Below are positions 9,243 to 42,515 of a DNA stretch of 44,478 bases, in pieces (within the stretch, counting starts at the first letter, position 1; every line of letters begins with the position of its first letter). A program made the translations under genes and the position numbers. The notes below the pieces were generated by a model. It saw only the letters and a program-made list of their open reading frames with translations, had not been told where the DNA came from and ran no database searches. Source of the stretch: a virus (Duplodnaviria; Caudoviricetes); the IMG/VR virus record IMGVR_UViG_3300030708_001288, positions 1 to 44,478 of that record; one strand, 5' to 3'.

Positions 9243-10220
9243 ATGGTAGGAGCAATAATAGGTGCAATAGGTGGCGTAGCTTCAGCTGCGTATAGTTTTT
9301 ATCAAGCAGACCAAGAATCTAAGGCTGCAGCAGCAGCTCAAAAAGAACAAGCAAGACTTAGAAAAGATGCAAGAAGCAGAGCTGAAATAAATTATTTTGA
9401 AGGACTAACGTTACCTATGGAAGCTTATGAACAAGCTTTTGAAAACACATTAGCTTCAACACAGACACAGGTAGAGGCATTACAGGAGGCGGACCCACGA
9501 GCATTAGCAGCAGGTATTGGTAGGGTAGGTGCTATCGCTACACAACGTGATGCACAAACTAGAACTACTATGGCTGAAGATTTATTTAAGTTAGATAAAA
9601 TGAAAGCTCAATCCAGGGACGCTGTAAACCAACAACTTTTTGCTCTTGATTTAGCGGAAAAAAGAGAGATGGCAAAAAGAGAACGTGACGCTGAACGACT
9701 TAAAGCTCAACAGGTACAGGCAGGTATAACAGGAGTAACAGCAGCGGCTCAAGGTATTGATGCATTAATACCATTATTTACTGCTAGTGGTACAGATAAA
9801 AGAGCTATGGAATTAGCGGAAATGTATAAAGATACTCCTGGTTTAAAAGGTAAAACAATGGATGAGATAGTAGAGATTATGACTCCATATGCTAAAGATA
9901 AAGCTAAATATAAAAGTTTTAAAAGTCGTTCTCCAGAAGATTTTTCATTCAAGGATAATGAGTTTATATTCAAATACATGGACCCTTCAAACACTAATAA
10001 TTTAGATAATGTTATTGCAATACCTGATAATGACACGATAACTTTAAGTGACGAGGTAATTAATAACCCAGGATATGGTTTAGGATTAACACCTGAAACA
10101 GGGTTTACAGGTATGACTACGGATACTTTAGATTATTTTACTAAAAACCCAGGTGGTACTATGATGAGTTTATTAAGTCCATTTTCAGGACTTGATGACG
10201 AGTTCAACATTAGAGATTAA
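9243..10220 (+). CDS. Putative internal virion/ejection protein 1
   Basis: Gly/Ala-rich hydrophobic N-terminus followed by Ala/Gln coiled coil; first of three genes after the tail module, as in podovirus core-protein operons. Confidence 0.55.
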   Translation: MVGAIIGAIGGVASAAYSFYQADQESKAAAAAQKEQARLRKDARSRAEINYFEGLTLPMEAYEQAFENTLASTQTQVEALQEADPRALAAGIGRVGAIATQRDAQTRTTMAEDLFKLDKMKAQSRDAVNQQLFALDLAEKREMAKRERDAERLKAQQVQAGITGVTAAAQGIDALIPLFTASGTDKRAMELAEMYKDTPGLKGKTMDEIVEIMTPYAKDKAKYKSFKSRSPEDFSFKDNEFIFKYMDPSNTNNLDNVIAIPDNDTITLSDEVINNPGYGLGLTPETGFTGMTTDTLDYFTKNPGGTMMSLLSPFSGLDDEFNIRD

Positions 10221-10239
10221 TAGAATACAGATATAAGTT

Positions 10240-11844
10240 ATGGCAAATCCATTTACAAAACCTAGTATAAATTTAGATACTTACGAAAGAGCTAATCCCG
10301 CAGACGAGCAATTGAACTGGGGTCAGATTGCTACGGATATCACAAAGACATTTACCGATATTGAGGATAATAGAGCTAAAAGAAAAGCTGCTATTGAAAA
10401 GTCTTATAGAGAGCAGCAAGAAAAAATAGCAGAACTTAACAATAAGTATGACACTAAAACTATACAACAGCTTGTAAATACAGGGGTGATGTCTATAGGG
10501 GAGCAGCTTGCTTCTCAATACAACTTATTAAAACGAGGTCTTGTTACAGAAGCTGATTTTTCGTTAACACAGAATAATGCTAGTGCAGGGTTTAAAAGTA
10601 TAAAGAGCTATGCCGACGCATACAATAAAAGAATGAATGAGTTTACGGAAAGACGTAAAACAAAAATGGAGAATGGAGAACCTACAAGCTCTGCAGAGGA
10701 GGCTTATGATGTGGAGACACTATTAATGTTTAATAATTTAAATAATAAAAAACTTGTATCCGATAGGATGGGTAATCTTTCTGTATTAACTTTTGATGAG
10801 AATGGAAAACCTATTGAAGGGGAATCAGCAACGGTGCAGCAGTTAGAAGGGTTGCTTTATCAAGAGACAAATAACATTGATGTTACTAAAGTTTTAGATA
10901 ACATGAAGAAACAGGTAGGAAAACTATCGTTAGATTTTGCAGGTGTTACAAAGAGTGGATATAGAGACCTAACGCAGACACAAATACTAGCCGCAGATAC
11001 AAGGTTTATACAGGTGTTAGGAAATAAAAATGCCGAGGGACATAAACAAGCTACAAAACTGTTAAATGGTTTAGTTGACCAAATGGTTTATGATAAGTTC
11101 GTTGCCGCTACCTATGCTGTAAATAATATGTCTACAGCAGAAGGTAAAGCATATACATTAGGGACACAGGCGGAGCATGATAAATTTGCTAGAGAAAATC
11201 CTGGTAAAGAAAACCCTATTATAGTTAGGGAGTATAATAAAAACTCAGGACTTGTACAGTCGTTCCCTACCGATGAGCAGGTAAATAAAGTAAAAGACTG
11301 GGCACGTGCATCTATCCTAGGTTCTTTTGATGCTAGCGTAAAAACAAAAGCAGAAAGAGTAAGTAATAGAAATTATAGTTTTACTAAAAATCTTAATCAA
11401 GATAAAGAACAAATAAACACTGCTACTACCGAAGCTTTATTAGCACATCAAAAAATATATGACAGAATAAAATTCTTAGACGAGCAAGGAGCTTCTCCTA
11501 TAGCAAAAAAAGAAAAACTCCAATTAATTAAACAGCTTGAAGAAAATATAAAAACAACAATAAGCGATAAACAAGGAGTTTATAGAGTAATAGTGAACCC
11601 TAATACTTTAGGAATAACAGTAGAAAAATTTAACGCTAGTATTAATGACTATGACCCTGCTATAGAGGGTGAGGTAACATCTGTAGATGGTAGTTTAGAT
11701 GGATTGTATTTTGATAAAAGTTTAACTAAGAAAGAAGCAGAAGACCAAAAACAAATTGAGCTTAATGCATTAATGCAAGGAGGATTTTTTAACAATCAAA
11801 GTGACCCATTAAACCTTAACCCTACAGATGAGGAAGAAGAATAA
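10240..11844 (+). CDS. Putative internal virion/ejection protein 2
   Basis: 534-aa helical-looking ORF between the pilot-like gene and the giant gene. Confidence 0.5.
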   Translation: MANPFTKPSINLDTYERANPADEQLNWGQIATDITKTFTDIEDNRAKRKAAIEKSYREQQEKIAELNNKYDTKTIQQLVNTGVMSIGEQLASQYNLLKRGLVTEADFSLTQNNASAGFKSIKSYADAYNKRMNEFTERRKTKMENGEPTSSAEEAYDVETLLMFNNLNNKKLVSDRMGNLSVLTFDENGKPIEGESATVQQLEGLLYQETNNIDVTKVLDNMKKQVGKLSLDFAGVTKSGYRDLTQTQILAADTRFIQVLGNKNAEGHKQATKLLNGLVDQMVYDKFVAATYAVNNMSTAEGKAYTLGTQAEHDKFARENPGKENPIIVREYNKNSGLVQSFPTDEQVNKVKDWARASILGSFDASVKTKAERVSNRNYSFTKNLNQDKEQINTATTEALLAHQKIYDRIKFLDEQGASPIAKKEKLQLIKQLEENIKTTISDKQGVYRVIVNPNTLGITVEKFNASINDYDPAIEGEVTSVDGSLDGLYFDKSLTKKEAEDQKQIELNALMQGGFFNNQSDPLNLNPTDEEEE

Positions 11845-11874: not shown

Positions 11875-14800
11875 ATGCCAATAGATTATAAAGAATTTTC
11901 AGCAAAAATTAAAAAAAAATATCCTGCTTATGTAGGTGAGGATGATTATGAGTTAGCACAAAAAATAATCAAAAAATATCCTGTATATGAAAATCAAGTA
12001 AACTTTGATTTAAAAAAAAAAGACGAATCTCAACCTACTTCTCAAACGGAAACTACGGAATCCGTTACCGAAGAAGAGACGGAACCTACTGGCTCATCGG
12101 ATGCTTCTGCTCAAGAAGATAAAAAACCTAAAACATCTGCTGCAGATTTTGTAACACCAGAACCTACCTTTGAATTTCAATCTGAACCTAAAAAGGAAAA
12201 GGATTTTTTTATGGGTGTAAAAACTGATAGAGAAGTAAAACCTATATTTTCTGAAGATTTTGGTGTGTATGAAAAAGATAGTGAAAAAGGTAAAGCTATA
12301 ATAAAAAAAAGAAAAGAGGAAGCGGCTAAAAAAACTCAAGAAACTCAAGAATATCTTTCTCCTTTACAGTCTGTAATAACTCAAGATGAATATATAGGAA
12401 CAAATCAAGAGATAGTTGACAACTTAAAAGAAATATATGGAAAGCATGGGTTTAAATTTGATTTAGATGAACTTTCAGGTACCGTTAAAGTAGTGTCAGG
12501 TTTTGATGATGATGGTTTAATCATAGATTTAAATGCTGGTAAAACCATGGATAACTTTAAGTCAGGAATAGATTATCTTACTGGGGAAGGGAAAGAACAA
12601 CAAAAAGAACAATTTAAACAGCTTCAAAAATATCTTGTTGATAAAAGAAAAATTAAGGATAAAGATTATAACATAAGAGAAATGGTTTATGATAATCCTA
12701 CTTTAGTTTCTCCTAAAGATTATCAAAAACTTTCTAAAGAAATAGATATAGAATTAAAAGATATATTAAATCAAAGAAATGATTTAGTAAATCAACTTAA
12801 TTTACTAAATAAAATAGCTCAAGAAAAAGGTGGGTTTAGTTCTGAAGAATTAAATCAACTAACCCAACTTGAGTTAGATTTAAAAGACGTTACTAAAAAA
12901 TTAAAAACTGGATATAATCTACAAGAGCAAATAAATGTAGCATCTGGATTAAGTATAGAAGACGAAATAAAAAGAAAAGAAAAGTTAGGTACCACTATGG
13001 GGTATATATCAAATACTTTTTATGAGGGTGTAGAGAATGTAAGAAAAGGTGTAGTGGCATCAGCTATCTCGGCTTACGACTCATTAATGTTGGGGTGGAA
13101 AGATTTACAAGGTCAAATGGGACTAACTACACCTGAAGATTTTATAAATGAATTAGGTAAATCAGAGGATAGAAAAAAAACAATGAAAGAAATCATTGAG
13201 AATATAAATAATTCTGGTTTAACTAGCACAAGTACTACTACTCCTCAATATATGGAATCTGAAGAAAGAGGAGTTCCTTTAAAAGCTGTAGGTTTTACCG
13301 TAGGTAGTGTACCAGGTATGGCTGCAATAATGGTTAATCCTTATTTAGGTTTTGGTGTAATATCTGAACAAGTGTTTGGGGGAATTGCTGAGGAGTGGGT
13401 GAATAATCCTGACTATGAAAAAATGCCTTTAAGTGATTTATTAATAGTAGGTGGTGCATCATCTGTTATTCAAGCTAGTTTAGAAAAATTAGGTTTAGAT
13501 GTTTTATTAAGTAAGACTCCTTTTGGTAAAGTAATTACCGATAAAATACTACAAGGAGTTATGAAAAAAGTAACTAAAGGAACTACTCGTGACCAGTTCT
13601 ATCGATTAATAGCAGCAGAAACTAATAGTTTAGTAAAGAATGGTAGTATTAAAATACTAGGAAACAGTATAAGTGAATCCTTTACAGAGGGTGGACAACA
13701 AATTGTAGATACAGGTATTAAAGCTTTGTATAATAAAACTCAAGGAAAACCTTTTTTTCAAGTAGCTAAAACAGGAGAAGAAGCTATAGAACAAATAGGT
13801 GAAAGTATGTTCTATGGTTTGTTAGGAGGGAACATGATGTCTACTTTAATGACTGCACCACAAATATTAAATCAAGGTATACAGGCTAAAGGTGTGAATA
13901 AAGAAATGACAGAAATTTTACATTTCATGTCCGATAGTCCTGAGCTTCGTAACAATATGGTAAAGTCATTAAAGATGGAAATATTACAAGGACGAATGAC
14001 TAAGTCTCAAGCTCAAGAAACTATGCAAAGTTTTGAAGAGATGGTTGGTATAATGAATGAAATACCAAGTAATATAAATAAAAAAGGTGAAGCGTTTGAT
14101 TTAATACTAGAAAAAAATAGAATAGAAAATAGTATCAAAGGTAAATCTGAAGAGCTTACTAAACCACAACGAGAAAGGATAACACAAATAAATAAGGAAT
14201 TAGAAACATTAACTACCCAACCCGTAGAAGAAGAGGTTACAGAGGAAGTAGTAGAGGAAACTCCAGCAGAAGAAAAAGTAATAACTAGGGAGGATATTGA
14301 GAAAATCAAAGCTGAACAAGAAGCTAATCAAGTAGTTTACAATATGAATAAGACCGATAAAAAGATTTGGTCTAAAGATTTTGAAATACTAGATAACCGT
14401 AAAGGACAAGAAGAGTCTTCAATAGATGAAGAAGGAGATAAGATTGACAACAAATGGTTAGTGGTTAATAAAGTTACAGGAGAAATTTTGTATGCGACTT
14501 CTAAAAAAGACGCACAAAATATAGTTGACACTGCTCCTGCTTATGCAGAACTTTTTGGAGATGGAACAAAGGTAGAGTCTAAAAACATTATTACTCCAAC
14601 TGAAGTAAGCGAGGAAGTAGTAGAGGAAACTCCAGTAGCAGAAACAACTCCTCCAACACAAACTACAACTCCTACTAAAAAGAAAAATATATATTTTAGA
14701 TATAACTTAATAGATGCATTTGAACAAAAAACTGAATCAAATAGTGGAGACAATGCAACAAATTTTAGAATAGAGGTAGATGAAAATAATCCTAATCAAG

Positions 14801-17800
14801 GAAAACTCTTTCTTGAACCTGCTAATGCAAAAGAACATGGGCAGCTTAAAAATAATTTTGAAGGCTTAAAGAAAGACGTAGCATCATTTGAAAACGAAGA
14901 AATTTTTGGTAGAGAACCAGTAAAAGGAATGATAACGACAGAACCTGGTATAGTACGTAAAGAAGGAAAAAAGTGGATTGTTACTAAAAAAATAAAAACA
15001 AGATTGGTTTTGGATATACCAACACAAGGAAGAACTAGATATAAAGAACCGACAACTGAAACAACACAACCAACTGCTGAAGCTCCGACTCCTACTAAAA
15101 AGAAAAATCTTTATTATAAAGTTGATAATTTTATAGATAAAGAGCCGTATATGTCTAAAACTGAAACAAAAGACACAAATTTTAGAATAGAAATAGACAA
15201 AAATAATTCTAATAAAGGAAAACTTTTTCTTGAAATTGCTGATGCAAAAACACAAAAAGAATTTGCTTCTACAATGGTTAACGTACTACAGGAAAAAGCA
15301 ATAGAATATACAAACATAGAAGTTTGGGAACAAAATAAAGATAATGTAAAAGGACTAATAACAGTAGAACCTGGTGTAGTAACTAAACAAGGAGATAGAT
15401 GGACTGTCACTAAAAAAGCAAAAGCAGAATGGGTTTTAGATTTACCAACACAAGGAAGAACTAGATATAAAGAACCGACAACTGAAACAACACAACCAAC
15501 TGCTGAGGTTACAGAAGAAAATATAATAAGTAAAACTAAAGAAGATGCCATTTCAGAGCCAAGCACAGAGAGCGTGGATGTACAAGAATCTACCAGAGAT
15601 AGCGAAACAGTGGGAGAAGGAGACGTTCGGACCGTTACCGAAACGCAAGAAGAAGAAACGAAAATCAAAACTAAAGCAGAGGAGACAAAACAAAAGAAAA
15701 TAGATGAGGGTGTAGATATCTTAGCAAATATATTTGGAACTAAACCTACACCAAGGAAACAAGTAGATGAAAGAAAAAAAGATATAGACAACGCAAGAAA
15801 ATCTTTATCTAAGGTAGCTCCTGAAGTAGAGATAGTGGTGCATGAAACTGATGCGGAGTACAGAAAAGCTACAGGTGAAGAAAATAGAAGTCAGTCTACT
15901 AGAGGTTCTTATAATCCTACTACTAAAACTATTGATATAAATTTATCTAAAGCTGCAGATACTACTGTAGCTCATGAAACATTTCATGCTTTATTATTAA
16001 AGAGTGGGATTAATAATAAACAAGCGGAAGCTATCACCTCAAAGATGCTTGCGGCTGTAAAGAAGGTAGCATCTCCAGAGTTACTAAAAAGAATAGAAGA
16101 GTTTTCTAATAAGTATGACACTCCTTTACAGAGTGAGGAAAGTATAGCTGAGTTGTTTGGTATACTAGCCTCAGAATATAATAACCTACCTAAGCCTACA
16201 CAAAATATTATTACACGATGGTTAAATAGATTAGCTAAGTTACTTAGATTAAAATCATTTACAGATGTTGAGGTAATAGACCTACTTAACACAGTGTCTG
16301 GTAAGGTAAGGAGAGGTGAGGTAATCACAGAGGAAGACATTACAATACTACAAGATACTAAAGGAAAGACTACTCCACAGACACGTAAGCAAATGGATTC
16401 ACCTATGAGTATGGAGCAAAGGGTGGAGCAGATTGCGTTGAGGTATTACCCTGAGAATGGTAAGTTCTTTAGTAATCAAATTAATCACCTTGAGTTGATG
16501 GCGAAGTTAAAACCTACAGGGTTTAGGTTGGTGCAAAATAAAACTAAGAACGGGTGGACCATTCGTTATCCTAACAGTGGTAGGATTTTTGAAATACGTA
16601 AAGGTTATCAGGGTGGTGCTAAAGTTCCAGGTGTACGTTATCAAGAGGGTAGACCAACCATTGACTCAGTTAAGAAGGGGGCAGAAGAGGCAGGAGTAGG
16701 AAAGGAATCTGTAGTTAAATATTTACAAACCCTAGGATATACTCAACAAGAAATAGATAAGTCTTACGAAGTTAAAAAAGTAACCCCTAAGAAAGTAGAG
16801 GGTGTACAAAAAAGAAAACGAAAGGCAGGACAAAGATTAATGTCAGCGGGTAAATTAAACCCACGTTTTAAAGAAATGCTTGAGGGTAATGAGGATTTAA
16901 ATTATACGGTAGAGAATCAAAATAAAGCTATAAAGGTAGCTGAAGAATTAATAAAAGATGTTGGAATAGACCAGGCATATGAAGCAGTTAAAAAAGGAAA
17001 CATCAGAGGTGGTGTAGCTACAGCGATTGAAGCGGAGATGTTAGTACGTCTTAATGAAAACCTTCAGAAGGCTGAAGAATCTGGTAATGAAAACGATATA
17101 GTTAAAGCTATAGAAGCGTTTAACGAAATGACTACAATGATGATGAAAGACCAAACAGAAATGGGTCAACGATTATCTATGTGGAATAAAATATTTAAAA
17201 CTTCTATTCTTGAATATAACCTTGACTTTGTTAAGAAGAAGTATGAGAAGGAGTATGGTACACCATTACCTCCTAGTACTGCTGGTAAACTACAAGCGAA
17301 GGCAGAACAAATTAAAAAGCAAAATAAGAAAGTAGAAAAACTAGAAAAAGAAAAAGGTACAGCTCAGGAAAACCAAGACATATCTAATATTGAGAATAAA
17401 GCAAAAAGAGAAACAGCTAAGGATTTTAAAAGTGTAGCTAAAGGAGCTTTTAGTGATTTCTTTTCTACTAAACCCACCAAGACTAGAAAGCAAGTAGATA
17501 ATGATGGTGTAGCTATTATTATTTCTGTAGGGGAGGATATAATAAAACAATATAAAGATAAAGGTGTAGTTAAAGAAGCTGAATTAAAGAAGCTTATAGC
17601 TAAAGGAGTAAAAGATATTAAAGCTCAGTTAAAAGAGAAAGGAATAAAACTCACAGTTAAATCTTCAGAGCTTAGTAAAAAATTTAATGAAGTTGTTAGA
17701 CAGCAAGTTAAAAAAATAAAAGTATCAAAGACTCAAGATATTGAGCAAGGTCGTATAAAGATTCCTAAACAATTGTTATATGATTTGGTTTTGGGAGGGG

Positions 17801-20022
17801 TTAAAGATATTAATACTTTAACCAATAAAGTATATGAGGTAATTGAAAAAGATTATACTGACCTTACTCTACGTGAAGTTAGAGATGCTATCACAGGTTA
17901 TGGTAAGGAGATTAGTGAAACTAAGGATGAAATAAAAGAAAAAATAGCTTCACTAAAAATGGATGGTAGACAGTTATCTAAGCTTGAAGATTTGGATAAA
18001 GGTAAACGTCCTAGAATTTTAAGAAGACGTAGAGAATATACGCAAGAGCAAAGAAAAAGAATCAGAGAAATCAGACAGAGACTCAAGGCTCTACCTCTTG
18101 AAGAGACAGCAGACCTAGAAAAATTTTATAAGTCTGCATTAGAGTCTTATAAAACTAGATTATCTAATAGATTAGCTGACCTTAAAAAAGCTATAGAAGA
18201 AAACAAAGCTATTCCTAAAAAAGAATCTAAACTTAAATTAGATAAGGAGGCTAAACAATTAAAAGAACAAGTCAAAGAAGTACAAAAAGAATATGATGCA
18301 ATATTCAAGGATACTAAAAAGTCTAAGCAGAGAACTATAGACCAAATAGTAGACCAAAAAAATAGAAGGTTAGCCGACTTACGTCAAGGATTAGCATATC
18401 TACAAGAGAAAGGAAAGGAGAGGGAGGTTAAAAAAACTAAGAAGATTACATCTCCAGAGATTGAAAACTTAAACAAACAAATTAAAGAAGTACAGGAAGA
18501 ATACCAAGCTCTTGTAGAGGCTCAAGGAATTGCAGAAGCAAAACAAATAGAGAACGCTAAGAAATATATTCAATCTCAAATTAAAGAGTATCAAGAAAGA
18601 ATAAAAAATAAAGATTTTTCTACAACAAAAAAACGTGTGCTACCTAAGACTACAAAAGAATTAAGTAGAGAAAGAATTAAATTAAAAAAATTAAAGAATG
18701 AATTTGCAGATGAGGTAGAAAGAGCAGAGAAAAAACAACAAAAGTTATTAGGCAAAACTGGTTCTTTTATTTATGAAACTGTAAACCTAGGGAAAGGTTT
18801 ATTAGCTTCAATAGATTTTTCTGCAGCGGGAAGACAAGGAATATTCTTAGGCTCTTCAAATCCTAAGGAATATGCTAGGGCATTTAAAGAGATGCATAAA
18901 GCAGTATCGGAAGAGAAGTATAATGAATTTATGGATAGGTTAGAGCAGTCCGAATACTATCCTTTAATGCTAGACATGGGTCTATCTATTACCGACACCA
19001 GTGGAAAGGTTAATACATCCGAGGAAAGGTTCCTAGGTAATTGGTTAAAATCTCGTGTAGAAATTAAAGGAAAAAATGTAAATGTATTAGAGATGGGATT
19101 AAAAGCTTCGGAGAGAGCTTACTCTACTTTCTTAAATAGTTTACGCTCTGAGGTGGCAATTAAAGGTATTAAAATGTTAGAGGCTCGTGGAATGACTTTT
19201 GAAAGTAATCCGGAACAGTATAAAGCCTTAGCTAAATTTATAAATAATGCTACGGGTAGAGGTCAACTTACCTCTAGTGAAGGTGTTAATAAATTACTTA
19301 ATACTATTTTCTTTTCTCCTAGAATGCTAGTAGGTAATGCGATGATATACGGGCAAATGATAGACCCAAGGACTCCAGGGTTTGTTAGAAAGCAAGCCGC
19401 TAAAACTTTACTTACATATGTAGGGTATCAACTACTTATGAAAGTTTTATTAGGTATAGCTATGAGAGCATTAATAGGGGCCTTCGGTGATGACGATGAT
19501 TGGGATGATGTAGAGTTGTTTAATTGGAATATATTAGATACAGACTTTAATAAGATATTATGGGGAGATACACGTTACGACACCTCAGCAGGACAAGGTA
19601 TCATGATGAGAACGGTAGCTAGATTAATTATGGGAATGGATGCCGAAGGAGAAGAAGATAGAGGTACTACATTTTTAAGATTCTTACGAAATAAAATGGC
19701 ACCAGGCCCAGGACTTTTACTTAGTGTTATCAACCAAAAAAATCCTGCTAATCCATTTGAAGATATAGAAGATGCTACAGCATACGACTATATAAAATCT
19801 TTAGCAATACCTCTTACCATATCAGGATTTATAGAGGATGTTAATACTATAAGTGGAAACAAAAAAGAATTAAGTGCTTCAAAAACTTTATTTAATTTTA
19901 TACTTAATACTTATGGTGTAAACTCTATGACTTATCAAAGAAAGAAAAAAGGTAAGTCTAGAAAAAAAGAAGGTAGAGGGGATAGAAGAGAAGATAAAAG
20001 AAGAGATACGAGAGGTAGATAA
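11875..20022 (+). CDS. Giant internal virion/ejection polyvalent protein with zincin-like HExxH motif
   Basis: 2715 aa; hydrophobic Gly-rich segments, acidic linkers, duplicated ~140-aa domain, RGSY..HETFH..EESIAE (HETFH at 15973-15987), long Lys/Glu coiled coils, basic C-terminal tail. Confidence 0.65.
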   Translation: MPIDYKEFSAKIKKKYPAYVGEDDYELAQKIIKKYPVYENQVNFDLKKKDESQPTSQTETTESVTEEETEPTGSSDASAQEDKKPKTSAADFVTPEPTFEFQSEPKKEKDFFMGVKTDREVKPIFSEDFGVYEKDSEKGKAIIKKRKEEAAKKTQETQEYLSPLQSVITQDEYIGTNQEIVDNLKEIYGKHGFKFDLDELSGTVKVVSGFDDDGLIIDLNAGKTMDNFKSGIDYLTGEGKEQQKEQFKQLQKYLVDKRKIKDKDYNIREMVYDNPTLVSPKDYQKLSKEIDIELKDILNQRNDLVNQLNLLNKIAQEKGGFSSEELNQLTQLELDLKDVTKKLKTGYNLQEQINVASGLSIEDEIKRKEKLGTTMGYISNTFYEGVENVRKGVVASAISAYDSLMLGWKDLQGQMGLTTPEDFINELGKSEDRKKTMKEIIENINNSGLTSTSTTTPQYMESEERGVPLKAVGFTVGSVPGMAAIMVNPYLGFGVISEQVFGGIAEEWVNNPDYEKMPLSDLLIVGGASSVIQASLEKLGLDVLLSKTPFGKVITDKILQGVMKKVTKGTTRDQFYRLIAAETNSLVKNGSIKILGNSISESFTEGGQQIVDTGIKALYNKTQGKPFFQVAKTGEEAIEQIGESMFYGLLGGNMMSTLMTAPQILNQGIQAKGVNKEMTEILHFMSDSPELRNNMVKSLKMEILQGRMTKSQAQETMQSFEEMVGIMNEIPSNINKKGEAFDLILEKNRIENSIKGKSEELTKPQRERITQINKELETLTTQPVEEEVTEEVVEETPAEEKVITREDIEKIKAEQEANQVVYNMNKTDKKIWSKDFEILDNRKGQEESSIDEEGDKIDNKWLVVNKVTGEILYATSKKDAQNIVDTAPAYAELFGDGTKVESKNIITPTEVSEEVVEETPVAETTPPTQTTTPTKKKNIYFRYNLIDAFEQKTESNSGDNATNFRIEVDENNPNQGKLFLEPANAKEHGQLKNNFEGLKKDVASFENEEIFGREPVKGMITTEPGIVRKEGKKWIVTKKIKTRLVLDIPTQGRTRYKEPTTETTQPTAEAPTPTKKKNLYYKVDNFIDKEPYMSKTETKDTNFRIEIDKNNSNKGKLFLEIADAKTQKEFASTMVNVLQEKAIEYTNIEVWEQNKDNVKGLITVEPGVVTKQGDRWTVTKKAKAEWVLDLPTQGRTRYKEPTTETTQPTAEVTEENIISKTKEDAISEPSTESVDVQESTRDSETVGEGDVRTVTETQEEETKIKTKAEETKQKKIDEGVDILANIFGTKPTPRKQVDERKKDIDNARKSLSKVAPEVEIVVHETDAEYRKATGEENRSQSTRGSYNPTTKTIDINLSKAADTTVAHETFHALLLKSGINNKQAEAITSKMLAAVKKVASPELLKRIEEFSNKYDTPLQSEESIAELFGILASEYNNLPKPTQNIITRWLNRLAKLLRLKSFTDVEVIDLLNTVSGKVRRGEVITEEDITILQDTKGKTTPQTRKQMDSPMSMEQRVEQIALRYYPENGKFFSNQINHLELMAKLKPTGFRLVQNKTKNGWTIRYPNSGRIFEIRKGYQGGAKVPGVRYQEGRPTIDSVKKGAEEAGVGKESVVKYLQTLGYTQQEIDKSYEVKKVTPKKVEGVQKRKRKAGQRLMSAGKLNPRFKEMLEGNEDLNYTVENQNKAIKVAEELIKDVGIDQAYEAVKKGNIRGGVATAIEAEMLVRLNENLQKAEESGNENDIVKAIEAFNEMTTMMMKDQTEMGQRLSMWNKIFKTSILEYNLDFVKKKYEKEYGTPLPPSTAGKLQAKAEQIKKQNKKVEKLEKEKGTAQENQDISNIENKAKRETAKDFKSVAKGAFSDFFSTKPTKTRKQVDNDGVAIIISVGEDIIKQYKDKGVVKEAELKKLIAKGVKDIKAQLKEKGIKLTVKSSELSKKFNEVVRQQVKKIKVSKTQDIEQGRIKIPKQLLYDLVLGGVKDINTLTNKVYEVIEKDYTDLTLREVRDAITGYGKEISETKDEIKEKIASLKMDGRQLSKLEDLDKGKRPRILRRRREYTQEQRKRIREIRQRLKALPLEETADLEKFYKSALESYKTRLSNRLADLKKAIEENKAIPKKESKLKLDKEAKQLKEQVKEVQKEYDAIFKDTKKSKQRTIDQIVDQKNRRLADLRQGLAYLQEKGKEREVKKTKKITSPEIENLNKQIKEVQEEYQALVEAQGIAEAKQIENAKKYIQSQIKEYQERIKNKDFSTTKKRVLPKTTKELSRERIKLKKLKNEFADEVERAEKKQQKLLGKTGSFIYETVNLGKGLLASIDFSAAGRQGIFLGSSNPKEYARAFKEMHKAVSEEKYNEFMDRLEQSEYYPLMLDMGLSITDTSGKVNTSEERFLGNWLKSRVEIKGKNVNVLEMGLKASERAYSTFLNSLRSEVAIKGIKMLEARGMTFESNPEQYKALAKFINNATGRGQLTSSEGVNKLLNTIFFSPRMLVGNAMIYGQMIDPRTPGFVRKQAAKTLLTYVGYQLLMKVLLGIAMRALIGAFGDDDDWDDVELFNWNILDTDFNKILWGDTRYDTSAGQGIMMRTVARLIMGMDAEGEEDRGTTFLRFLRNKMAPGPGLLLSVINQKNPANPFEDIEDATAYDYIKSLAIPLTISGFIEDVNTISGNKKELSASKTLFNFILNTYGVNSMTYQRKKKGKSRKKEGRGDRREDKRRDTRGR
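15017..15506 (+). repeat. Perfect 64-bp direct repeat (15017-15080 and 15443-15506) ending two diverged domain copies
   Basis: TACCAACACAAGGAAGAACTAGA...CAACTGCTGA is identical in both copies; offset 426 nt (142 codons). Confidence 0.95.
15545..15703 (+). CDS. Nested 52-aa basic protein in the +1 frame of the giant gene (MPFQSQAQRAWMY...)
   Basis: Hand translation MPFQSQAQRAWMYKNLPEIAKQWEKETFGPLPKRKKKKRKSKLKQRRQNKRK*; A-rich upstream context; resembles small MPFKS.xQR phage proteins. Confidence 0.65.
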   Translation: MPFQSQAQRAWMYKNLPEIAKQWEKETFGPLPKRKKKKRKSKLKQRRQNKRK

Positions 20023-38813: not shown

Positions 38814-40385
38814 ATGAACGAACAAGGGTACATTCCGAAAGACTTATCTTTCGATGACAATGCTAGGGAGAAGTTAATATCAGGCATCTCAAAAATCTCC
38901 AACGCTGTAAAGAGTACACTAGGGCCTCAAGGCCAGACGGTGTTAATTGAATCCACACAACATACACAGGGGTTAACTGTCACCAAGGATGGTGTAACGG
39001 TTGCTAAGTCTGTTTTTTTAATAGACCCTGTAGAGAACTTAGCGGTTCGTATGATGAAGCAGGCTTCAGAGAAGACAGCTAACACTGCGGGTGATGGAAC
39101 TACTACCGCTATTGTATTGACTGAGGCTTTAGTAAAAGCTGGTGAGTCTCATATTGGTGAGAACGAGAATACGATACAGGTGGTACGAGAGATTCGTAAG
39201 GAGGGAGATAAACTTTTAGCAGACATTGCCAAGGAGTCTGTTGAGGTTACGGACGATATGCTGGAAGATATTGCTACTATCTCTGCTAATAACGATAGTG
39301 AGATTGGTGGGATTATAGCGGATGCATATAGAAAGGTTGGTCACGATGGTATTGTTACCGTTGAGCGTTCACAAACCGACAAGACCTATGCGGAGGTTAC
39401 GAATGGGATAAAGGTTGATAGGGGATATACCTCACCGATGTTTATCAACGACCACCGTAAGGATGAGTGTATACTCGATGGTGTAAAGATATTGGTATGC
39501 GATACTGAGATTACTAACATCTTGCAGATTGAGAATGTGCTCAAGCCAATTATTAATGGTGGCGAGAAGTTACTTATCATTGGGAATTGTTCGGGGAACG
39601 TTATCAACACACTTGCTGCTAACGTTCAGCGAAACGGTTTAAAGTTCTGTAACATCTTAGTTCCTTCTTTTGGTTACCGTTCTCACGAGTTAATGCAAGA
39701 CATTGCATTATCTGTTGGAGCGAAATACTTCTCGGAGAGTACAGGTGATGACCTGTCACTAATCCGTATGGAGGACCTAGGATATGCAGACAAGATTATC
39801 GTGGGTAAAGACTCTACAATAATTATCAAAGACAACCAGGTTACCGATGAGATTACTAAGAGGGTTGAGGAGTTACGTGAGCAGCAGGAGAGATTAACAA
39901 ACAAGGCGGAGCGTGACTTTGTGAATGAACGCATTGCGAGTTTAGTTGGGGGTATAGGTTGTATATACGTTGGTGCTACTTCTGATATTGAGCAGAAAGA
40001 AAAGTTTGATAGGGTAGACGATGCGGTATGTGCAGTACGTTCAGCTCTGCAAGAGGGTATTGTCCCTGGCGGTGGGTTATTACTAGATAGGTTATCTAAG
40101 AAGTATAAAGGAGATAGTACAGCAGATAAGATACTTAAAGAAACATTAGAGTCTCCATTAGCTCAGATATTAACAAACGCTGGGTTAGAGAAAGGAGAGA
40201 TATATAAGAAGAAGTTAAAAAAGAACGAGGGGTATAACGTGGTGACTGGAGAGTATGGCGATATGTTCGAGATGGGTGTAGTAGACCCAGCGAAGGTTAC
40301 GACACAGGCATTGACAAACGCAATCAGTGTTGCTACAACTATACTAACTACTAACGCAATTATAACACACGCAAGGAAAGAATGA
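38814..40385 (+). CDS. groEL: Phage-encoded chaperonin GroEL
   Basis: TLGPQG, VTKDGVTVAK, AGDGTTTA, EGIVPGGG and GVVDPAKV; no GGM tail; start set at ATG 38814. Confidence 0.95.
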   Translation: MNEQGYIPKDLSFDDNAREKLISGISKISNAVKSTLGPQGQTVLIESTQHTQGLTVTKDGVTVAKSVFLIDPVENLAVRMMKQASEKTANTAGDGTTTAIVLTEALVKAGESHIGENENTIQVVREIRKEGDKLLADIAKESVEVTDDMLEDIATISANNDSEIGGIIADAYRKVGHDGIVTVERSQTDKTYAEVTNGIKVDRGYTSPMFINDHRKDECILDGVKILVCDTEITNILQIENVLKPIINGGEKLLIIGNCSGNVINTLAANVQRNGLKFCNILVPSFGYRSHELMQDIALSVGAKYFSESTGDDLSLIRMEDLGYADKIIVGKDSTIIIKDNQVTDEITKRVEELREQQERLTNKAERDFVNERIASLVGGIGCIYVGATSDIEQKEKFDRVDDAVCAVRSALQEGIVPGGGLLLDRLSKKYKGDSTADKILKETLESPLAQILTNAGLEKGEIYKKKLKKNEGYNVVTGEYGDMFEMGVVDPAKVTTQALTNAISVATTILTTNAIITHARKE

Positions 40386-40525
40386 AAGCAAGTAAACTAT
40401 TAACCAAAGAACAAAGCCAACAACAATGGGGATATTATATATCTTTTAAAAGAAAAGGGTTTATACCTGCAGATATCTCTTTTGAGGATTGGTTAACTAA
40501 GACAATACCATTAAACCTAGGATGA
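40382..40525 (+). CDS. 47-aa hypothetical protein (not in ORF track)
   Basis: MKASKLLTKEQ...PLNLG*; ATGA overlaps at both ends. Confidence 0.55.
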   Translation: MKASKLLTKEQSQQQWGYYISFKRKGFIPADISFEDWLTKTIPLNLG

Positions 40526-40665
40526 GTTTTGATGTAAACATAGGGTTCTATCCTGGAATACTTTTAGGTATTAGAACCTATCACGATATAGGGTTTACTA
40601 CCCATGCATTTTATTTACCACTAGTTAGTTTACATGTTGTTATTGAAAATGATTTTGAAAAATGA
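40522..40665 (+). CDS. 47-aa hydrophobic hypothetical protein (not in ORF track)
   Basis: MSFDVNIGFYPGILLGIRTY...NDFEK*; ATGA overlaps at both ends. Confidence 0.6.
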   Translation: MSFDVNIGFYPGILLGIRTYHDIGFTTHAFYLPLVSLHVVIENDFEK

Positions 40666-40919
40666 AGCCAATAGGAAAATATATTATAATTAAAAAGATT
40701 AAGGAAGAGTTAAAGACAGAGTCGGGGTTATTACTATCCGCTCAAGATGCTTCGGAGTTTCGTTACAAAAAAGGTTTTGTATTTAAATCTGGTACCGATG
40801 TTGAGGTAATAGAAGATGGTGATATCATCTACTATGATGAGTCGGGTAGCCACGAGATGTTGATTGAGGATAATCCCTATACGGTGATTACTGAGCGGAG
40901 TGTCGTTGTTGTTTTATAA
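40662..40919 (+). CDS. groES: Co-chaperonin GroES
   Basis: MKPIGKYIII...KTESGLLL mobile loop, G.V...G, GDII; next to groEL. Confidence 0.85.
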   Translation: MKPIGKYIIIKKIKEELKTESGLLLSAQDASEFRYKKGFVFKSGTDVEVIEDGDIIYYDESGSHEMLIEDNPYTVITERSVVVVL

Positions 40920-41384: not shown

Positions 41385-41555
41385 ATGCCAACAGTTACAT
41401 ACTCCTGTCCAGATACAGGAAAAAAAATGAAGAAGACTTTCCCTTACAATGCACCAGGTAAAGCACAAGCCGATTGGTTTTCTAAACTAATGGACGGTTC
41501 TAAGAAAAATAACCCAGGTTATGGGATGGAAAAGGAAACTGTCTCAGGGTACTAA
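41385..41555 (+). CDS. 56-aa hypothetical protein (not in ORF track)
   Basis: MPTVTYSCPDTGKKMKKTFPYNAPGKAQA...SGY*. Confidence 0.65.
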   Translation: MPTVTYSCPDTGKKMKKTFPYNAPGKAQADWFSKLMDGSKKNNPGYGMEKETVSGY

Positions 41556-41566
41556 AAGAAAATTAT

Positions 41567-41574
41567 TATCTTTG
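41567..41574 (+). promoter_or_regulatory. -7 promoter element (TATCTTTG)
   Basis: TAnnTTTG upstream of 41594. Confidence 0.55.
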
Positions 41575-41593
41575 TAAGATAAATTTTTAAACT

Positions 41594-41803
41594 ATGAAAA
41601 AACAAGGTTACAACGCAAGACTTGATGAGTCTTTAGGGATGAAGCACAGAGGTGCTCACAAACAATCATTGAAAGACCGTAGAGACGAGTCTAAAGCAAT
41701 GTCTAAAAAAATGTATGGACACGCTTATGGTGGAGACCACAACATGTCTTACGAAAAAATTAACAATGTTAAGAAGCACCTTAGTGCACATATCCGTAAG
41801 TAA
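41594..41803 (+). CDS. Small basic protein
   Basis: KQGYNARLDESLG...QSLKDRRDESK. Confidence 0.7.
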   Translation: MKKQGYNARLDESLGMKHRGAHKQSLKDRRDESKAMSKKMYGHAYGGDHNMSYEKINNVKKHLSAHIRK

Positions 41804-41991
41804 TGGCAACGACAGATAAAGGTAAACGTAAAGAACGTAAAGATAAACGTAAACTTAAAAAAGCTATAAAAAAATTAGGGAGTAAATTAGGAACATCTCC
41901 ATCTTATAGGTCTTCTATACCATTAGATGTGTCTCCTAACCCTAGTCAAATGATGGAGACTAAGGGAACAATACCACCTAAATTTAAATAA
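41803..41991 (+). CDS. Small basic protein
   Basis: 62 aa, K/R-rich N-terminus. Confidence 0.55.
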   Translation: MATTDKGKRKERKDKRKLKKAIKKLGSKLGTSPSYRSSIPLDVSPNPSQMMETKGTIPPKFK

Positions 41992-41996
41992 TAACT

Positions 41997-42203
41997 ATGG
42001 CAACGAAAGGAAGAACTAAGAAAGAAAAGTTTCCAGAGATAAAAGAATCTCGCCAAGGTGCTTTTACTAAGTGGGCTAAGAATAACGGATTTAAAGATGC
42101 GTGTAGTGCTGCCTCTGCTGTAATGAACAATACAAAGAAGTATTCGGATAAGGTAGTGAAGATGGCAAACTACGCTAACAACTTTGGTTGTAAAAGAAGA
42201 TAG
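41997..42203 (+). CDS. Small basic protein
   Basis: IKESRQGAFTKWA...KMANYANNF. Confidence 0.65.
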   Translation: MATKGRTKKEKFPEIKESRQGAFTKWAKNNGFKDACSAASAVMNNTKKYSDKVVKMANYANNFGCKRR

Positions 42204-42204
42204 G

Positions 42205-42345
42205 ATGGGAAAACTATTAATACGAATGGGTAAGTCACTTATCGCATTCGGAAATAAAGTAAAGTGTGGATGGAACTGGTTAATTAGTAGACTAATGTTT
42301 ACATTGCCTCTATGTCCACACTCAAAGTGTAAGTGTAAAAAATGA
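42205..42345 (+). CDS. 46-aa Cys-rich protein (not in ORF track)
   Basis: MGKLLIRMGK...CPHSKCKCKK*. Confidence 0.55.
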   Translation: MGKLLIRMGKSLIAFGNKVKCGWNWLISRLMFTLPLCPHSKCKCKK

Positions 42346-42515
42346 AGAGAACAAGAATAGGACAATCAAGAGGACTAGGCGATAGTATCGAGAAGTTTAC
42401 TAAAGCTACAGGAATCAAAAAGGCAGTAGACACTGTAGCGAAGGCTACAGGAAAAGACTGCGGTTGTAACAAACGTAGAGATTCTCTAAACCGAATGTTC
42501 CCTTATAATAAATAA
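42342..42515 (+). CDS. 57-aa conserved phage protein (not in ORF track)
   Basis: SRGLGDSIEKFTKATGIK...DCGCNKRRDSLNRMFPY, a motif familiar from Bacteroidota phages. Confidence 0.7.
   Translation: MKRTRIGQSRGLGDSIEKFTKATGIKKAVDTVAKATGKDCGCNKRRDSLNRMFPYNK

Follow-up and report, generated by a model that had tools for sequence, protein, structure and literature searches.

A small open reading frame (ORF) nested in the +1 frame of a giant structural gene of a marine podovirus is almost certainly a real gene, and its frame is very likely older than the host text that it overlaps. The gene occupies positions 15545..15703 (plus strand) of the window, the whole stretch of DNA that was analyzed (44,478 nucleotides, IMG/VR record IMGVR_UViG_3300030708_001288, a virus record that is 76% complete). 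Overlapping genes are usually explained by a new frame that is written over an old gene and is then fixed to that gene; here the hidden gene would be the old one and the visible protein text its shadow. Nested phage genes as such are already known; an old free-standing gene family that is found in two non-homologous structural genes and at a free site within one group of phages is what the literature search did not turn up. The status of the nested ORF as a gene rests on homology and selection, as read from the available sequences, and not on its length.

The nested gene and its giant host gene

The window occurs in marine metagenomes, and no RNA dataset was among those listed as containing it. 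It carries virion genes, GroEL, a primase, a helicase and a crass-muzzle-like gene. The virus is a podovirus of marine origin that has the Flavobacterium elemo phages among its relatives; the relatedness of its giant protein to that of the elemo phages suggests a host within the Bacteroidota. The giant gene (2,715 amino acids, 11875..20022 on the plus strand in the ORF listing) is the last gene of the structural module and its product has no match in Pfam or PHROG. Its description as an ejection protein in the initial annotation agrees with the gene order, but no family match names the giant so. Based on its position, a sub-threshold match to T7 gp14 two genes upstream and an analogy to the crAss001 cargo proteins (PMC10172136), the giant is likely an ejection or cargo protein. 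The two genes ahead of it (325 and 534 amino acids, 9243..11844, plus strand) were compared with PHROG and Pfam, gave matches to phrog_13764 (virion structural protein, E = 6e-13) and T7_gp14 (E = 0.005, under the Pfam cut-off) and are likely other internal-virion genes.

The nearest cultured relatives based on the giant are the Flavobacterium elemo phages (40% identity over residues 1302-1489), where the giant is annotated as a structural protein. The elemo phages (Elemovirus) and Cellulophaga phage phi38:1 (Pervagoviridae) display the same order of portal, acidic gene, capsid, tail genes and giant, but the elemo giant has one 190-residue domain alone in common with the window giant. Sequence comparison places a conserved giant domain directly 3' of the overlap (15778..16341, plus strand), which contains an HExxH motif at 15973-15987, is putatively peptidase-like and matches DUF6782 only at E = 0.13. 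The giant also contains two tandem modules of ~130-140 amino acids each, which close with an identical 20-residue stretch (15022-15081 and 15448-15507), and the second module ends immediately 5' of the nested gene (15448..15507, plus strand). The giants are mosaic, and the window giant has little in common with those of loci L001, L043, L077 and L108 beyond the overlap. Two short stretches (residues 803-906 and 1216-1252) are 97-98% identical in L001, and no further stretch of that pair passed a low-complexity-masked search. Further downstream in the window, the GroEL gene is followed by an 85-amino-acid ORF that is GroES-like by eye (38814-40919, plus strand).

The nested ORF encodes a peptide of 52 amino acids (MPFQSQAQRAWMYKNLPEIAKQWEKETFGPLPKRKKKKRKSKLKQRRQNKRK), exactly as quoted in the initial annotation. 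It is intact, lies wholly within the giant gene over residues 1224-1277 and is present as a single copy in the record. The description of a very basic peptide opposite an acidic linker is borne out by the composition, with 19 K/R against 3 D/E in the peptide and 16 D/E against 8 K/R in the host-frame reading of the overlap (15544..15705, plus strand). The linker codons are atypical, as had been noted, with a GC3 of 0.41 in the first 32 codons compared with 0.19 in the remaining giant, and of all stretches of 32 codons in the giant these have the poorest codon-adaptation score. The length of the ORF alone is no evidence for a gene since some +1 ATG ORF of at least 52 amino acids also turned up in 19.8% of cases when the codons of the whole giant were resampled synonymously 1000 times. 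At the nested locus itself, the ATG and the open frame were retained in 0.7% of 200,000 synonymous resamplings. Contigs of one sequencing run (X2), possibly the one from which the window was assembled, tile the stretch, and contigs of other phages align at 85% identity or more mainly over 15531-15650, i.e., the first two thirds of the nested ORF.

The nested ATG is preceded by two in-frame TAA codons (15524-15529, five codons upstream) and by A at positions -13, -12, -11, -6 and -3, so that both the upstream stops and the A-rich context that had been claimed are present in a likely internal initiation region (15524..15544, plus strand). Scored with a matrix from the genome's own starts, it ranks 4 of the 149 ATGs in the giant. 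A stands at both -12 and -13 in front of 79% of the starts nested in giants (n = 95) and 68% of those nested in scaffolds (n = 65; the second host gene is described below); for the remaining +1 ATGs of these host genes the share is 15-16%. According to PMC6847099, A at -12, -13, -3 and -6 promotes initiation in Flavobacterium. The A-rich upstream DNA is partly expected from the host Lys/Glu codons. At the sequence level, the nested gene appears to have its own translation-initiation signal. No internal sigma-70-type promoter or terminator scored above shuffled sequences in a scan that did not include Bacteroidota promoter types and, given that no internal promoter stands above chance, the nested gene is probably translated by internal initiation on a late mRNA.

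Homologues and sites of the peptide gene

The initial annotation named a stand-alone family of small phage proteins, and a homology search did recover such a family: 115 of the 50% clusters matched the peptide at E ≤ 0.001, most of them 43-100 amino acids long. About 15 relatives are longer than 200 amino acids and carry the peptide domain at the N-terminus; they include two MuF head proteins and one ParB-like protein. A ddrB-ParB protein of the same arrangement is encoded at locus L037. Wherever the domain is fused to a larger protein it is N-terminal. One further fusion, to an IF3 C-terminal domain (protein P0008), was discounted because it is found on a single 591-base contig that is probably chimeric. 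The profile of PHROG 1375 matched 7 out of 24 aligned members (best E = 1.1e-4) and six out of seven free-standing homologues tested matched it weakly (3.6e-5 to 3e-3), while the window peptide itself had no match in PHROG, including PHROG 1375, or in Pfam. Like the peptide family, PHROG 1375 consists of small basic phage proteins, with the function given as unknown; the first 16 profile positions are uncovered and the library entry gives nothing on nesting. Two other candidates were rejected: DUF3008 (PF11450), an atlas lead at 0.81 only, since none of the 24 members matches Pfam, and an inner capsid accessory protein of the Patience gp4 type (PMC11965321), with no PDB match by profile or fold.

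Free-standing homologues are annotated in Streptomyces phage FlowerPower (gp48) and in phage 023Pt. Unannotated ones were identified in the cyanophages P-RSP2 and S-CBS2 and in phage C75C1 (L369:6001, L370:6001 and L371:6001), where they are absent from the GenBank annotation. The free-standing homologues sit in late or structural regions amid small genes, in FlowerPower directly 5' of the holin gene. Overall, members of the family occur in phages of Bacteroidota, cyanobacteria and Streptomyces whose capsids are unrelated. The literature search, with most subscription papers and supplements outside its scope, found no description of the peptide gene; a motif search, swamped by unrelated words, gave none among the matches listed (25 of 254).

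Among the first 37 viral loci with the peptide, 16 copies were nested in a giant, 16 in an acidic ORF of ~400 amino acids and 5 were free or N-terminal. The acidic gene is located between the portal and major capsid genes and has no family match; its position suggests a scaffold, and it is referred to as such below. It is not homologous to the giant. Within the same phage group the peptide gene is free-standing in seven loci and begins a few bases 3' of the giant's stop in the five that were inspected; no host-frame motif was present in the inspected linker regions of the giants beside such copies. A pattern scan for another variant of the peptide start yielded 120 loci (76 scaffold-nested, 34 free-standing and 10 truncated at the edge of a locus or contig) and no third host gene among them.

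The distribution was determined in two samples chosen by other genes. Among 67 primase-matched loci (the best 67 of 255 relatives), 25 contigs of at least 50 kb were available, and exactly one peptide match was found in 23 of these, including all 20 that are at least 90% complete. All 23 copies are nested in a giant with the host frame open for at least 490 codons on each side, and the capsid loci of the 25 contigs contain no copy. The second sample consisted of 80 capsid-matched loci and leans to the scaffold-nested clade since the query was taken from scaffold-nested phages. It contained 56 intact scaffold-nested copies, three copies broken by stops and 21 loci without a copy (one of them without scaffold DNA). 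Five of the 56 scored just 10-14 bits initially, and the local profile was widened with the first matches. A search through the whole of 21 capsid-chosen contigs identified one match in 11, one of which is a broken copy, and missed two divergent nested copies. Eight partial contigs (45-80% complete, four with the full giant) were read whole and contained no intact copy, with traces limited to a 17-bit match in L326 and a 12-codon stub in L332. Two phages fetched by host-gene homology, elemoE and MW202828, each contain one giant-nested, unannotated copy (NC_055854.1 52512-52640 in elemoE), and no peptide was found in phi38:1 and Panino.

The +1 frame and its ATG, proposed in the initial annotation as the feature to check in relatives, are thus conserved in both samples (23/25 primase contigs and 56/80 capsid loci). 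The peptide gene is single-copy; almost all phages of the window's clade carry it, it is common in the scaffold clade, and it is sometimes lost and is dispensable or replaced in places. This aquatic phage group is abundant, with an estimated ~8,200 IMG/VR stretches that contain its capsid gene and ~890 and ~2,100 that contain two variants of the peptide start, and annotation has overlooked one of its near-core genes. A second, truncated peptide ORF of 25 amino acids is located 675 bases 5' of the intact copy in the same giant in two loci (L027:5326 and L028:5326). Decaying scaffold-nested copies (L179:1736, L244:4759, L246:3879 and L327:3720-4877) display stops after 10-12 codons or a degenerate, still open frame of 42 amino acids. 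The truncated second copies and the broken scaffold copies fit ongoing duplication and decay.

Selection, relative age and probable movement of the gene

Substitutions in the overlap were counted in disjoint close pairs as silent in the peptide and changing the host protein, or the reverse. The ratio was 161:60 in the giant-nested overlap (27 pairs; the same direction in 21 of 25 informative pairs) compared with 187:695 in the giants' downstream flank (21 of the 27 pairs), and 77:23 in the scaffold-nested overlap (14 pairs; 13 of 14) compared with 141:494 in the scaffolds' flank (13 pairs). Substitutions in the overlap spare the peptide and alter the host protein, the reverse of the flanks, and the +1 frame is under purifying selection. 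Parsimony counts on peptide-aligned codons agree, in that peptide third positions vary most, although such an alignment is biased towards the peptide. Selection in the peptide's own frame, which had been suggested as a further check, is therefore present in both host genes. Together with the conserved ATG and the unannotated elemoE copy, it supports the earlier assertion of a real nested gene that annotation misses.

Two readings do without a separately started gene. The +1 frame might only mirror an RNA signal or a conserved motif in the host linker, with no second gene at all; a +1 ORF of this length occurs in about one fifth (~20%) of resampled giants, as noted above, but the reversed substitution pattern, the disappearance of the host motif in most cases where the peptide is lost, the free-standing copies with 2-11 stops in the host-equivalent frame and an RNA structure over the nested ORF that does not rise above shuffles (z 0.38) have already largely refuted it, and it is given hardly any weight. 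Programmed frameshifting into the +1 frame, which would yield a truncated host protein ending in the peptide, fits the A-rich upstream DNA, and in tailed phages frameshifts can occur in the genes for scaffold and capsid proteins. Against this stand in-frame stops a few codons 5' of the ATG in most loci, and a Met-Pro that is invariant across the peptides and is N-terminal in free-standing and fused forms alike. Since the stop directly abuts the ATG in several loci (L002, L015, L017, L052, L069, L074 and L090), frameshifting is regarded as highly improbable.

With the nested gene accepted, the question of which frame came first can be approached from both sides of the overlap. The host frame is never interrupted across the nested copies, and the unusual linker codons are explained by the need of the host frame to stay open. 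The Phe codon before Lys, for example, is TTC in 76 out of 76 scaffold-nested loci, as an open host frame demands, and TTT in 23 out of 34 free-standing copies. The net charge averages +14.8 in the peptide and -11.6 in the giants' host text; the host-equivalent frame of free-standing genes has a mean net charge of +5.0 and contains 2-11 stops. The host linker motif is confined to nested cases, and sister scaffolds without the peptide are mostly without the host motif too. PMC8227390 describes a phylogenetic criterion by which, of two overlapping frames, the less widely distributed one is new. Here the peptide is the more widespread of the two and the one that is under selection, which makes it the ancestral frame and the linker the derived one, and the peptide frame is very probably older than the host text. 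The term overprinted, used in the initial annotation, is not supported in its usual sense of a new frame on an old gene, and a de novo origin by overprinting was rejected in view of the 115 clusters and the homologues outside the group in cyanophages and Streptomyces phages. The acidic linker would then be a by-product of the peptide gene, the opposite of classic overprinting.

The lambda Rz1 gene is nested within Rz. The genes B, E and K of phiX174 are nested phage genes according to PMC9865509. As in the case described here, a whole gene lies inside another in a second frame and is missed by gene callers, but each of these genes is tied to one host gene, whereas the peptide gene has two non-homologous hosts and a free site, and its nested frame is the selected frame. 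De novo overprinted viral genes (PMC8227390) share the +1 internal overlap and the skewed codons in the shared DNA; here, in contrast, the narrower frame is the host linker and the +1 protein has homologues far beyond the overlap.

The history of the sites was analyzed with a FastTree phylogeny of 138 capsid proteins rooted on phi38:1, from which G061 (L334 and L361) was excluded as a 105-kb record with two capsid genes that probably represents two joined genomes. The giant-nested metagenomic phages form one clade (support 0.999), and all four phages that have a free-standing copy and whose capsid sequence could be used fall inside this clade, interleaved with nested ones, which suggests that the free-standing copies escaped from nesting. 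The scaffold-nested phages form the other group, with a basal support of just 0.46 and scattered losses, and elemoE lies outside both groups. In a tree of 73 peptide genes (120 bases), a two-cysteine clade (SH-aLRT 98) combines 13 scaffold-nested with 3 giant-nested copies, and the elemoE copy is 79% identical to a scaffold-nested copy and 74% to the best giant-nested copy. The peptide tree needs nine site changes. Strongly supported branches force just two of these, and the AU test (p = 0.159) does not reject the possibility that the giant-nested copies arose once. As judged from these trees, the gene likely moved more than once between host genes.

A frame-neutral mobile cassette, i.e., an ancient basic gene that moved more than once between two unrelated linkers and back out to a free site, is the explanation that is cautiously favoured. 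The old peptide gene would have been inserted, as a cassette that keeps the host frame, into acidic linkers that are under little constraint. Lys and Arg codons read one base earlier would spell mostly Glu, Gln and Lys once T is avoided before AA, AG and GA, which would explain both why the insertion is tolerated and why the linker text arises as a by-product. If true, this would be a natural case of an overlap that arises by the insertion of an old gene and is then reversed, with a movement that spans a phage group of thousands of metagenomic contigs and is unseen by annotation. The two host genes and the free site within one phage group provide paired natural experiments on how an overlap forms, is tolerated and dissolves.

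Structure and candidate function of the peptide

AlphaFold, drawing on 121 sequences, predicted two helices in the window peptide (residues 6-15 and 17-26; mean pLDDT 81.5), i.e., a helix-Pro-helix mini-domain followed by a basic tail of lower confidence. Cysteines occur in 30 out of 163 peptides, and 28 of these 30 contain exactly two, at two different pairs of positions; this pattern suggests that the mini-domain is folded and that its disulfide is optional. A search of the PDB by sequence gave nothing but chance matches to SH3BGR (E of 0.1 or more), a search of the PDB by fold gave no match and a fold search of BFVD returned uncharacterized phage proteins only, so that no characterized homologue was found by sequence or fold in these two databases.

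The role of phiX174 protein J and the internal proteins of T4 serves as a functional model for the peptide. The preferred reading, held with modest confidence, is an internal head protein of the virion that binds DNA and works like phiX174 J while being unrelated to it; the basic peptide is predicted to enter the head and there to bind and neutralize DNA. This reading is based on the late or structural location of the gene, the MuF fusions, the high positive charge and the neighbouring clusters of small basic genes. The peptide also carries invariant Met-Pro-Phe and Trp residues, which would be superfluous for plain charge neutralization and point to a specific binding surface. Like the peptide, phiX174 J (composition from PMC9865509) is small, very basic and partly unfolded with a hydrophobic anchor, but its basic part is N-terminal and its aromatic part C-terminal, the reverse of the order found here. 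Homology to phiX174 J was rejected since no similarity in sequence or fold was found, and the comparison is limited to how the protein might work.

An unpackaged peptide that acts late inside the infected cell, on the host ribosome, RNA or a protease, or that tunes lysis, is rather unlikely. The invariant N-terminus and Trp would suit a specific site, the spread of the family over phages that infect Bacteroidota, cyanobacteria or Streptomyces and have unrelated capsids would suit a conserved host target, and the FlowerPower homologue lies immediately 5' of a holin gene; however, the fusions to MuF head proteins and the recurrent adjacency to portal, scaffold or capsid genes speak against this reading, paired cysteines would suit an oxidizing, extracellular setting, and the sole fusion to IF3 is the 591-base contig discounted above. 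Less probable again is a partner or packaging tag that binds the inner capsid, the portal or an acidic cargo and guides encapsidation, with nesting as a coupling of dose. The N-terminal position of the domain in all larger fusions, including the MuF and ddrB-ParB types, is in line with such a tag, as is the acidic nature of both host genes, which likely encode internal assembly proteins, but unrelated capsids would need a common binding site, the host genes are non-homologous, the gene stands free in close relatives and the mosaic giants have little in common beyond the overlap. A specific partnership with the giant, suggested as one option in the initial annotation, is unlikely, given that relatives carry this gene free-standing or within a host gene that is not homologous to the giant. 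The other option given there, a DNA-condensing peptide, is a hypothesis. The head-protein reading and its competitors can be approached directly in the cultured carrier elemoE (Flavobacterium sp. BAL314), where translation and function are testable.

Small genes were also observed in clusters at other positions. The window contains a run of six small, mostly basic ORFs of 46-69 amino acids at the start of the late region (41385-42515, plus strand), which resembles the small-gene clusters that contain free-standing peptide copies elsewhere. Phages without the peptide display clusters of small basic genes 3' of the giant (L323:926-2817, minus strand; L326 after 9183; L331:635-1019, minus strand) that include a DUF6321 protein (E = 2e-8) and a weak match to DUF5872, and several of their products carry cysteine pairs.
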